From contig OZ223249.1 in NCBI GenBank assembly GCA_965140485.1, positions 731,750-795,749 on the forward strand: DNA of 64,000 nucleotides, written 5' to 3'. Origin of the DNA: an uncultured Methylophaga sp. (GTDB lineage: Bacteria; Pseudomonadota; Gammaproteobacteria; Nitrosococcales; Methylophagaceae). Under the pieces are notes generated by a model. It was not told where the DNA came from. It did not search any database and saw only the letters and a program-made list of their open reading frames with translations. Below, one piece after another: positions 17,838 through 20,620 of the stretch (positions are counted from its first letter, which is position 1; each line of letters begins with the position of its first letter). The position numbers were made by a program, and so were the translations under genes.

Positions 17838-19099
17838 ACATGGCCGAATTTACTCCACAGCCCAGTTGCTCAGATGACTTTGATGACAATAACCTGAATG
17901 TAAAGCAAGCAAAACAGCGTATTCATGATTTATTATCACCTATTTCAGGTTGGCAGAAAGTCTCTTTAAGGCAGGCTCTGGGGCAGATTTTACATCAAAG
18001 TGTTGTATCACCACGTCAAGTTCCACCTTATGATAATTCAGCCATGGATGGATATGCCTTACGAAGTGATGATATTGAAAAAGCGCCATTTTCACTAAAA
18101 AATGCTGGTGTCGCTTTTGCAGGAAAGCCTTATCAAGGCCGGGTTGAAGAAGGACAGTGTGTTCGCATTATGACCGGAGCAAAAATTCCGGATGATTGTG
18201 ACACGGTAGTGATGCAGGAACAGGTAGAGCCTAAAGAACATACCATTATTATTCATAGTGAGGTTAAAGCCGGACAAAATGTCAGACTTGCCGGAGAAGA
18301 CATTGACTGTGGTGACACAGTTTTACCTGCTGGACGGCGACTCACCGCAGCCGATTTAGGGCTGCTGGCATCTTTGGGCATCGCAGAAGTGGTCATTTAC
18401 CGCCCTCTCCGAGTCGCTTTTTTTTCTACCGGTGACGAACTATGCGGTTTAGGCGAACATTTAGGCGATGGTCAAATCTATGACAGTAATCGTTACACAC
18501 TGTTTGGTATGCTCAGCCAGCTGAATATCGATGTGATTGATATGGGTGTGGTCCCCGATAATAAAGCCGCGTTAAGAATTGCTTTGCAACAAGCTTCTGC
18601 TGATGCAGATGTTATTATTTCCTCTGGAGGTGTCTCCGTAGGTGATGCCGACTACGTCAAAGATATGCTGGCTGAACTGGGACAGGTTAACTTCTGGAAA
18701 ATTGCGATGCGTCCAGGACGTCCTCTGGCATTTGGTCAAATCGGTGAAGCGATGTTCTTTGGTTTACCCGGTAACCCTGTTTCTGTGATGGTAACCTTTT
18801 ATCAATTTGTCCAACCAGCCCTGAAACGCTTAGCAGGTGAAACTGACACCGCTCCTATTATCGTAGAAGTACCGTGCGATAATGTAATTAAAAAACGTGC
18901 TGGCCGCTTTGAATTTCAGCGCGGCATTTTATTCCGTAACAGTGATGGTCAACTCAGAGTCAGTACAACTGGAGCCCAAGGCTCAGGTATTCTTCGCTCA
19001 ATGAGCATGGCGAATTGTTTTATTTTACTTGATGAGAGCTGCGATGGACTCAGTGCCGGCAGTCTTGTTAACGTTCAACCCTTTGCAGGTCTGGTATGA
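17825..19099 (+). CDS. moeA: Molybdopterin molybdotransferase
   Basis: [39 protein letters not shown]; start may be 17840. Confidence 0.95.
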
Positions 19100-19974
19100 C
19101 AGAATCCACAACCGAACACACTTTGGTCAAACAACAACGCGAGTTTAATAAACTGCGTAAACGCTTACGTCGCAACGTCGGTCAGGCAATTGCCGATTAC
19201 AATATGATTGAGGACGGCGATAAAGTCATGGTTTGCTTATCTGGCGGTAAAGATAGTTATACCATGCTCGATATTCTGATTAACCTAAGAGATCATGCGC
19301 CGATTAATTTTGAGCTGATCGCGGTGAACCTTGATCAGAAACAACCCGGCTTCCCCGAACATGTCTTGCCGGAATATTTATCATCAATCGGTGTGCCCTT
19401 CCACATTATAGAAAAAGACACCTACAGTATCGTTAAAGAAGTTGTACCAGAGGGTAAGACCACCTGTGGCATCTGTTCTCGTCTGCGCCGTGGTTCATTG
19501 TATGGCTACGCAAGACAAAATGGCATCACCAAAATAGCTTTAGGTCATCACCGTGATGACATTATTGAAACGCTATTTTTGAATATGTTTTATGGCAGCA
19601 AAATAAAAGCCATGCCACCTAAATTATTAAGTGATGACAAAACCAATATCGTCATTAGACCTTTAGCTTATGCACAAGAGTCAGATATTGCGCGTTATGC
19701 CGAAGCAATGAAGTTTCCTATTATTCCGTGTAATTTATGCGGCTCACAGGAAAATCTACAACGTCAGGCTATCAAAGCCATGTTACAAGGATGGGAAAAA
19801 CAATTCCCAGGCAGATTAGAAAATATTTTCCGCAGTATTCAGAATATTTCACCATCGCAAATGGCCGATCTTGATTTATTCAACTTCACTGATCTAGAAC
19901 AATTCAGGCAGGAGCCAACCGGTGAAGAAGATCGCTTTCAGGATGATATACAACAGCCTGCGCTAGCAAGATAG
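19096..19974 (+). CDS. ttcA: tRNA 2-thiocytidine(32) synthetase
   Basis: SGGKDS PP-loop, [23 protein letters not shown]. Confidence 0.95.
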
Positions 19975-20028
19975 ACACAGACTTATCACCAGTTATAAGA
20001 AATATTACAAAACGAATACAAGTATCAA

Positions 20029-20210
20029 CGCTAAGTCATTGAAACTGGACAAAACAAATATAAACCATTGATTTTTATATGTTTAATAAAATGGTCATTT
20101 TTTAACCAAAACCGTCAGGCTTGTTACGTAAGAATGACTTAGCGATTTTCACAGAAGTTAATCACAGAGTTATCCACAGAAAATGTGGGTAACTCTGTAA
20201 GTCATTGATC
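20029..20210. promoter_or_regulatory. Cluster of DnaA boxes and IHF-consensus sites (datA/DARS-like)
   Basis: TTATCCACA 20170-20178, inverted TTACCCACA 20184-20192, degenerate boxes at 20145 and 20158; AATCAA-N4-TTA on the minus strand at 20061-20073 and near-matches at 20032-20044 and 20198-20210. Confidence 0.55.
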
Positions 20211-20224
20211 GCTTCTCTAAGTGC

Positions 20225-20620
20225 TTATTTTTCGATTGGCTTGGGCGTAAAATCTTCTGCAAACTCTAAAGCATTACCATCAGGATCACGACAGAAAAAC
20301 GCTGCTCTACCGGACTTGCTTCGCGAAAATTCATAACCTGCAGCTTCCAGACGCTCACCTAAGGCTTCTAAATCATCCACTACTAGGGCTAAATGACGAT
20401 CACGGCCACCATGTGCAGGACGACCATCTGTTGAATCAGGATTAGGTAATACCATCAGATGAATCATTTGTCCGGTATCAGCGATATCTAACCAAGCACC
20501 ATCATAGGCAAACTCAGGTCTGTCGGGATTTAATGGTAGTTGTAAAACATCACAATAAAAACGTAAGGAAACATCTAGGTCTTCTACTAAAAAACTGGCA
20601 TGTGCGATTGATTTGATCAT
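20225..20620 (-). CDS. VOC/glyoxalase family protein
   Basis: HASFLVEDL..SLRFY..VL, HLALVVDDL, FCRDPDGNALEF. Confidence 0.88.
   Translation of the reverse strand: MIKSIAHASFLVEDLDVSLRFYCDVLQLPLNPDRPEFAYDGAWLDIADTGQMIHLMVLPNPDSTDGRPAHGGRDRHLALVVDDLEALGERLEAAGYEFSRSKSGRAAFFCRDPDGNALEFAEDFTPKPIEK

Follow-up and report, generated by a model that had tools for sequence, protein, structure and literature searches.

The intergenic gap between ttcA and a VOC gene in an uncultured Methylophaga sp. (~19983-20210) probably represents a DARS-type element and not a datA-like one. All positions given without further qualification are those of the window, which is the whole stretch of 64,000 nucleotides that was analysed. 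Membership of this element in the DARS core sequence family is very probable, and we regard a DnaA-reactivating function as likely. As predicted from its sequence, the element would bind DnaA, IHF and Fis, promote the release of ADP from DnaA and influence initiation. Most likely, it is the counterpart of DARS in a methylotroph, where none has been described. To our knowledge, experimental work on DARS has been carried out only in E. coli, with homologues reported for a handful of related species. The term 'DARS-like' has reportedly been used in one paper, and a search of the literature returned no paper that joins Methylophaga with 'DnaA box'. Earlier work has demonstrated DARS2 homologues in Shigella, Erwinia, Yersinia, Photorhabdus, Rahnella, Vibrio and Shewanella (PMC8682772).

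The gap is 250 bp long (19975-20224) and lies between two convergent 3′ ends, with a PP-loop/TtcA-like open reading frame on its left flank (19096-19974, plus strand) and a glyoxalase/VOC open reading frame on its right (20225-20620, minus strand). This element, copy A, and its full-length paralog elsewhere in the genome, copy B, are both situated between convergent 3′ ends, and a promoter is therefore unnecessary at either site. A scan of the gap for promoters and terminators found no excess over shuffled sequences. The original prediction had described the gap as a datA/DARS-like element, and all the motifs that it listed were recovered at their positions.

Four DnaA boxes at the right-hand end of the gap form the core of the element. 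Box II (TTATCCACA, 20170-20178, plus strand) is a perfect consensus and is invariant in 20 species. It is positioned head-to-head with box I (TTACCCACA, or TGTGGGTAA on the plus strand; 20184-20192, minus strand) across a 5-bp spacer, GAAAA, and head-to-tail with box III (TTAATCACA, 20158-20166, plus strand) across a 3-bp spacer, GAG. A further degenerate box (ATTTTCACA, 20145-20153, plus strand) is the positional match to box III′ of E. coli DARS1. The consensus box and its inverted partner had thus been recognised correctly, as had the two degenerate boxes at 20145 and 20158 with their spacing of 13 and 12 bp, and the 15-5-15 palindrome said to enclose the opposed pair is present at 20164-20198 (ACAGAGTTATCCACA / TGTGGGTAACTCTGT, 14/15 match). 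Read on the minus strand, the core is TTACCCACA-TTTTC-TGTGGATAA-CTC-TGTGATTAA-CTT-CTGTGAAAA.

The DARS core has been defined by boxes I and II, which are opposed across 5 bp, and by boxes II and III, which are arranged head-to-tail (PMC6868365, Sugiyama et al.). On boxes I and II, DnaA forms a head-to-head dimer that depends on Gln208 and releases ADP, and a degenerate box III′ beside box III of DARS1 is dispensable (PMC6868365). All four of these published core features, namely the opposed boxes I and II, the 5-bp spacer, the head-to-tail box III and box III′, are present in the element. In E. coli MG1655, the core of DARS1 reads TTATCCACT-ATTCC-TGTGGATAA-CCA-TGTGTATTA and that of DARS2 reads TTATTCACC-TTTTC-TGTGGATAG-AGT-TGTGAAGAA. 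Box order, box orientation and the 5-bp and 3-bp spacers of this 9-5-9-3-9 layout are identical in the element, DARS1 and DARS2.

Beyond this common layout, the element shares different features with each of the two E. coli sites. DARS2, in the rppH/ygdT-mutH gap, has the same three box orientations and the same two spacer lengths, and its spacer between boxes I and II is identical in sequence (GAAAA in the orientation of the window); however, its box II carries one mismatch, whereas that of Methylophaga is a perfect consensus. DARS1, in the bioD-uvrB gap, likewise has a three-box core, in which box II is perfect and box III is accompanied by a degenerate box III′, but it is located in a promoter region and not between convergent 3′ ends, and there is no consensus IHF site within 330 bp of it. 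DARS1 works without IHF or Fis. As a separate observation, the rppH-mutH gap of MG1655 contains a second core-like unit, TTATCCCAG-CTTTC-TGTGGATAA-CAT-GGTGTAAGA (L029 1152-1190), approximately 315 bp from the DARS2 core. This unit may correspond to the published accessory boxes of DARS2, and the sequence profile described below matches only its box II part, at 13.3 bits.

The third E. coli site, datA in the glyY-queG region, resembles the element as a cluster of DnaA boxes outside the origin that comes with an IHF site, a single and essential one in datA, but it differs in having no head-to-head pair with a 5-bp spacer. datA consists of boxes 2, 3 and 7 around one IHF site and promotes the hydrolysis of DnaA-ATP, which is the opposite function to that of DARS. 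The geometry found in the ttcA-VOC gap is that of DARS, and it does not fit the datA arrangement.

These comparisons were put on a quantitative footing with R1, a 51-position sequence-only model derived from 62 cores, none of which came from E. coli. The E. coli DARS1, DARS2 and datA loci were taken by coordinate, because the core is too short for BLAST; a blastn comparison of the element with E. coli genomes gave no chromosomal match, and only plasmid matches at non-significant E values of 0.2-3. Among the E. coli sites, R1 scored highest on DARS1 (28.3 bits, E 7e-8 for the 67 kb covered by the search), with all three boxes in register. All three boxes were also matched in DARS2, at 16.8 bits and with an E value of 3e-4 for the same 67 kb, which on its own would be borderline if scaled to the whole genome. 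In both matches, box III of the element lines up with box III of the E. coli site. The match to datA was partial (18.3 bits, model positions 6-30) and covered only two tandem boxes, because datA does not have the opposed box. The two halves of the original prediction thus fared differently. Its DARS half is supported by the core geometry, the R1 profile, the orientation and phase of the IHF site, the conservation within the genus and the paralogs; its datA half is not supported, given the absence of a head-to-head box from E. coli datA and the partial R1 match there.

Within its own 3.14-Mb genome, R1 found exactly five matches, with scores of 35.7-58.6 bits, and the next best match, at the origin candidate, reached 13.8 bits. 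A mismatch-based scan for the geometry, run separately from R1, returned the same five sites in the 3.14 Mb. Head-to-head box pairs with a 5-bp spacer and at most one mismatch in each box occur three times genome-wide, and all three are within these elements. Moreover, 72 stretches from a collection of species-representative genomes contain the exact 23-mer TTATCCACAGAAAATGTGGGTAA, which comprises box II, the spacer and box I, where our own arithmetic predicts approximately 0.02. The three-box geometry is therefore far beyond chance. Individual motifs are much less informative. There are 44 perfect DnaA boxes in the genome compared with approximately 35 expected, and a single box is hence unremarkable; perfect IHF sites number 434, or one per 7.2 kb, so that the probability of finding one in a 250-bp gap is approximately 0.03; and sites as good as the Fis-like site of copy A, with two mismatches, number 398 in the genome. 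Single motifs are weak evidence, and it is their arrangement that counts.

To the left of the core, the gap contains an arm with several further sites. Its outermost part is a DnaA-box-like 9-mer with two mismatches (TTATCACCA, 19983-19991, plus strand), which is located 187 bp upstream of box II in a region that appears in the genus alignment as a conserved block right after the ttcA stop codon. The perfect IHF consensus previously reported for the minus strand at 20061-20073 (AATCAATGGTTTA) was confirmed. It reads YAANNNNTTGATW (TAAACCATTGATT on the plus strand) and lies 109 bp upstream of box II; its consensus positions TAA....TTGWT are conserved in 20 species, whereas the N4 positions are variable. 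Between the IHF site and the core, 77 bp upstream of box II, there is a Fis-like 15-mer (GGTCATTTTTTAACC, 20093-20107) with two mismatches to GNTYAAAWTTTRANC. Conservation of this site within the genus covers its G at -7, its C at +7 and TTTTAACCA, and the conserved columns read TG...TTTTAACCA.

The arm is framed by the 12-bp inverted repeat of the original prediction, which is indeed present at 20029-20040 and 20133-20144. Its 12-mer occurs twice genome-wide, both times inside the ttcA-VOC element. The distal repeat arm forms part of a CTAAG motif (CGCTAAGTCATTGAA, 20029-20043) that is nearly invariant in the 20-species alignment and overlaps an IHF site at 20032-20044. The proximal repeat arm is the motif AATGACTTAGCG (20133-20144), whose CTTAGC core begins approximately 31 bp upstream of box II; in the same alignment ACTTAGCG is invariant, and the three bases before it are nearly so. 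A third copy of the motif (CTGTAAGTCATTGAT, 20196-20210) flanks box I on the other side, with TAAG and TTGAT conserved in the genus, and overlaps an IHF site at 20198. The IHF sites at 20032 and 20198, which had been called near-consensus, each contain one mismatch.

This arm resembles the regulatory arm of DARS2 in several respects. In both, an IHF site is present in the same orientation at ~100 bp from the core, and in both there is a Fis-type site in the arm, a putative one in Methylophaga, together with extra distal DnaA boxes. E. coli IBS1 (TAATGCATTGACT) is located at -99 from box II and the Methylophaga site at -109, which is 10 bp, or one helical turn, further out. Phase and distance of the DARS2 IHF site are known to matter (Kasho et al., PMC4245941). 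There are also clear differences between the two arms. In Methylophaga the Fis-like site is closer to the core than the IHF site is, but the essential sites FBS2-3 of E. coli lie beyond IBS1-2; the CTTAG motifs that flank the Methylophaga arm have no counterpart in E. coli; and sequence similarity is confined to the core. In DARS2, the essential Fis sites FBS2-3 overlap low-affinity DnaA boxes. Since the order of Fis and IHF sites differs from that in E. coli, the arm is DARS2-like in its logic and not an orthologous regulatory arm.

The conservation of the block in relatives, which had been proposed as a check, was examined next to its two gene neighbours. The ttcA-VOC gap element was found in 24 assemblies of the same genus. 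In an alignment of 20 Methylophaga species, both flanking gene ends are retained in 18 rows, and the right flank differs in the remaining two (L015, L016), which are also the two species with two tandem units at the orthologous site. The conserved columns of this alignment coincide with the four boxes, the IHF consensus, the Fis-like site, both repeat arms and the third TAAG...TTGAT motif. In four species (L010, L017, L018 and L020), pairing between the two arms of the long-range 12-bp repeat is lost without compensation; the arms are probably two binding motifs rather than the halves of an RNA stem.

The element is one of five core units that are present at three loci in the same genome: copy A in the ttcA-VOC gap (~0.75 Mb), copy B (2.63 Mb) and a tandem triple, C1-C3 (0.24 Mb). 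Copy B is a full-length paralog at genome positions 2,629,2xx-2,629,4xx, in the interval at which a ClpB-like gene and cobO converge with their 3′ ends. Alignment of copies A and B extends over 257 columns at 63% identity, with a score of 190 compared with 75 ± 9 for shuffled sequences, and the order of the sites is the same in both. Relative to box II, a distal DnaA-like box is found at -187 in A and at -185 in B (where its sequence is TTATACACT), and both copies have a CTAAG motif at about -139, a perfect IHF consensus at -109, the Fis-like 15-mer at -77 and a CTTAG-type motif at about -31. Array C1-C3 (~238,200-238,700; L022 1480-1960) is located beside ogt and consists of tandem units of roughly 170-180 bp. 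Every one of the five copies has the Fis-like 15-mer at -77/-76, and GNTYAAAWTTTRANC itself is matched without mismatch just twice in the 3.14 Mb, on both occasions in array C. Copies B and C1-C3 keep the boxes, but the extended palindrome is absent from them, and copy B retains only the CTAAG/CTTA cores of the long-range repeat. With five cores spread over three loci, a tandem array that contains the only perfect Fis sites of the genome and a widely shared CTTAG motif, this system should be of interest to specialists.

The proteins that would act at such an element are encoded in the genome. Its DnaA shares 58% identity with E. coli DnaA and keeps Gln208, Leu290, Phe239 and Lys243; of these, Gln208 is required in DARS action for head-to-head and Leu290 for head-to-tail interaction. 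Hda was identified by TIGR03420 (253.6 bits against a cut-off of 194.8 bits). The gene for Fis, a protein of 96 amino acids with 47% identity to E. coli Fis, stands in the order prmA-dusB-fis-purH. For IhfA and IhfB, the identity to the E. coli counterparts is 80% and 66%, respectively. There is also a DiaA-like SIS protein that is 37.5% identical to E. coli DiaA. With DnaA, Hda, Fis and IHF encoded, none of the proteins employed at DARS2 in E. coli is missing, and the cell is equipped to produce ADP-DnaA.

A mechanism can be proposed for the element on the model of DARS in E. coli. ADP-DnaA, arising from Hda-dependent hydrolysis after initiation, would first bind the perfect box II. The protomer on box II would recruit a second one to box I, head-to-head over the 5-bp spacer, and a third DnaA molecule, aided by box III′, would bind box III in head-to-tail orientation. 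The head-to-head contact between the AAA+ domains, which in E. coli depends on Gln208, would then free ADP, and the resulting apo-DnaA would depart from the DNA and rebind ATP, leading to more ATP-DnaA before the next initiation. Together with the CTTAG motifs and the distal box, the IHF and Fis-like sites could constitute a DARS2-like regulatory arm, which an IHF-induced bend would fold onto the core, coupling its activity to the cell-cycle or growth phase. Given the conservation of the element in the genus, its paralogs and the presence of suitable proteins (a DnaA that has Gln208, together with Hda, IHF and Fis), the circuit that recycles DnaA between ADP and ATP forms probably extends well beyond enterics and vibrios. 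The Methylophaga elements also provide natural variants with which to consider what DARS requires, as a perfect box II occurs in them alongside IHF and Fis-like sites, the sites are ordered differently, cores are arrayed in tandem, and one more conserved motif is present.

A cluster of this kind could alternatively bind DnaA without any nucleotide exchange, and act as a titration sink, as a datA-like site of hydrolysis, or as a local DnaA-dependent block to transcription for the converging genes. Titration of free DnaA has been proposed for box clusters in B. subtilis, and DnaA titration models are current in the literature. High-affinity boxes would bind DnaA regardless of what follows, an IHF site beside DnaA boxes is an arrangement found in datA too, and five cores with 15-20 boxes would tie up a noticeable share of cellular DnaA. 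However, titration needs neither the 9-5-9-3-9 geometry nor a fixed spacer, and it is precisely this head-to-head layout that is kept in each of the five copies, throughout the 20 species and in lineages far outside the genus, while E. coli datA, as set out above, is without it and matches R1 only in part. We therefore consider such a role without exchange to be unlikely, and favour the DARS-type reading.

The inverted repeats in the gap could also be taken to encode RNA structure, in the form of a bidirectional terminator or a small structured RNA. The gap does fold better than shuffled sequences on both strands (z -4.2 and -3.9), the 15-5-15 palindrome gives a long hairpin, and the bases that flank boxes I and II change together in five variant species (CAGAC...GTC). 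Against this, any inverted repeat in DNA folds equally well on both strands; the hairpin is AT-rich and without a U-tract, and the terminator scan calls none in the gap; and an Rfam scan of the gap gave only sub-threshold chance matches, mostly to eukaryotic miRNA and lncRNA families. The stem itself is made of two opposed DnaA boxes, its extension is missing from copies B and C1-C3, and the uncompensated loss of long-range pairing in four species has been described above. The reading was rejected, as the fold z-scores are explained by DNA inverted repeats and covariation gives the stem no support, and we regard an RNA-level role as very improbable.

Two further identities had been named as ones that would count against a replication-control element, namely the true oriC and the end of a mobile element. 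In the cumulative GC skew of the genome, the lowest point is at 1,388,979 and the highest is near 3.01 Mb. Located 7 kb from the minimum, the folA-priA gap (C1:1395740-1396024) contains three perfect DnaA boxes (1395831, 1395847 and 1395865), a fourth box with one mismatch and a GATC cluster, and is the probable oriC. The dnaA gene itself is approximately 230 kb from this origin candidate, at 1.623 Mb. The element is 644 kb away from the folA-priA gap, and an oriC reading of the element was rejected in view of the skew minimum and the three-box, GATC-rich gap at 1.39 Mb. Finally, it is hardly credible that the gap contains a mobile or selfish repeat (a MITE, the end of an integrative element, or an origin with DnaA boxes from a plasmid or phage) or serves as a cryptic secondary origin. 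In favour of such readings are the presence of several copies, among them the tandem units at 0.24 Mb, the paired units that certain congeners carry at the orthologous site, and short similarities to E. coli plasmids, which are the non-significant matches mentioned above. Against them, the copy number is just five; terminal inverted repeats, target duplications and mobility genes close by were not seen; an AT-rich unwinding element with a GATC cluster of the folA-priA kind is absent, and the skew minimum lies elsewhere; and the constancy of the flanking gene pair in nearly all sampled species means that the element does not resemble a mobile-element end.

The distance to the folA-priA gap corresponds to ~42% of the replichore, compared with ~41% for DARS2 in E. 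coli (calculated from map positions). Among four complete congeners, with folA used as a proxy for the origin, the orthologous element lies at approximately 42, 49, 56 and 93% of the half-chromosome. The position thus varies and is only partly conserved, and it was therefore given little weight. Copies B and C are each located ~76% along the replichore, on opposite arms (C on the left, B on the right).

The core is not restricted to Methylophaga. Carriers of the exact 23-mer include, in addition to this genus, many gamma- and betaproteobacterial lineages, among them Nitrosomonas, Undibacterium, Methylobacter, Cycloclasticus, Legionellaceae and Acidithiobacillus, as well as one metagenome-assembled genome labelled Eubacteriaceae, and almost all of them have box III at the 3-bp spacing. 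At a lenient threshold (E <= 1e-3), R1 matched 332 of 400 genomes drawn evenly from the class (83%), but it also matched 53 of ~90 control genomes from other classes of the phylum, mostly at two tandem boxes. The class-wide prevalence of 83% was accordingly discarded as non-specific, and since matches at this threshold occur outside the class, a weak profile match is not diagnostic. At E <= 5.8e-8, approximately 115 of the 400 class genomes were matched (a hand count among the 150 matches listed), compared with 6 of ~90 outside the class. Judged by these profile matches, the three-box core is common in the class, and we claim no firm figure for its prevalence. R1 can be used to annotate DARS sites elsewhere, given a strict threshold that demands all three boxes. 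Four genomes from outside the class and within the same phylum (G500, G453, G458 and G467) have full-length three-box matches of 34-41 bits, and with these DARS-type geometry may extend past the Gamma- and Betaproteobacteria.

One accessory feature recurs with the core in these lineages. Among 53 non-redundant beta- and gammaproteobacterial copies, TTAG[CG] starts between -33 and -31 from box II in 21, compared with one to three per 10-bp bin elsewhere. The motif CTTAG[CG] (20139-20143 in the window) is thus found at a fixed distance from the core in ~40% of non-redundant copies (loci L030-L101). Neither DARS1 nor DARS2 of E. coli has it, and we know of no protein that binds it. A tentative picture, which we put forward as a possibility, is that three-box cores are old and widespread in Gamma- and Betaproteobacteria, with a fixed core and a lineage-specific accessory arm, that Methylophaga has built from them a system of five cores at three loci, and that CTTAG marks a cofactor site or a requirement for DNA shape.

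Paired or arrayed core units on one contig are also common in other beta- and gammaproteobacterial lineages (L041, L051, L067, L075 and L089). At three loci (L031, L063 and L083) the core units are ~305 bp apart, and one uncultured betaproteobacterial contig has five core units.
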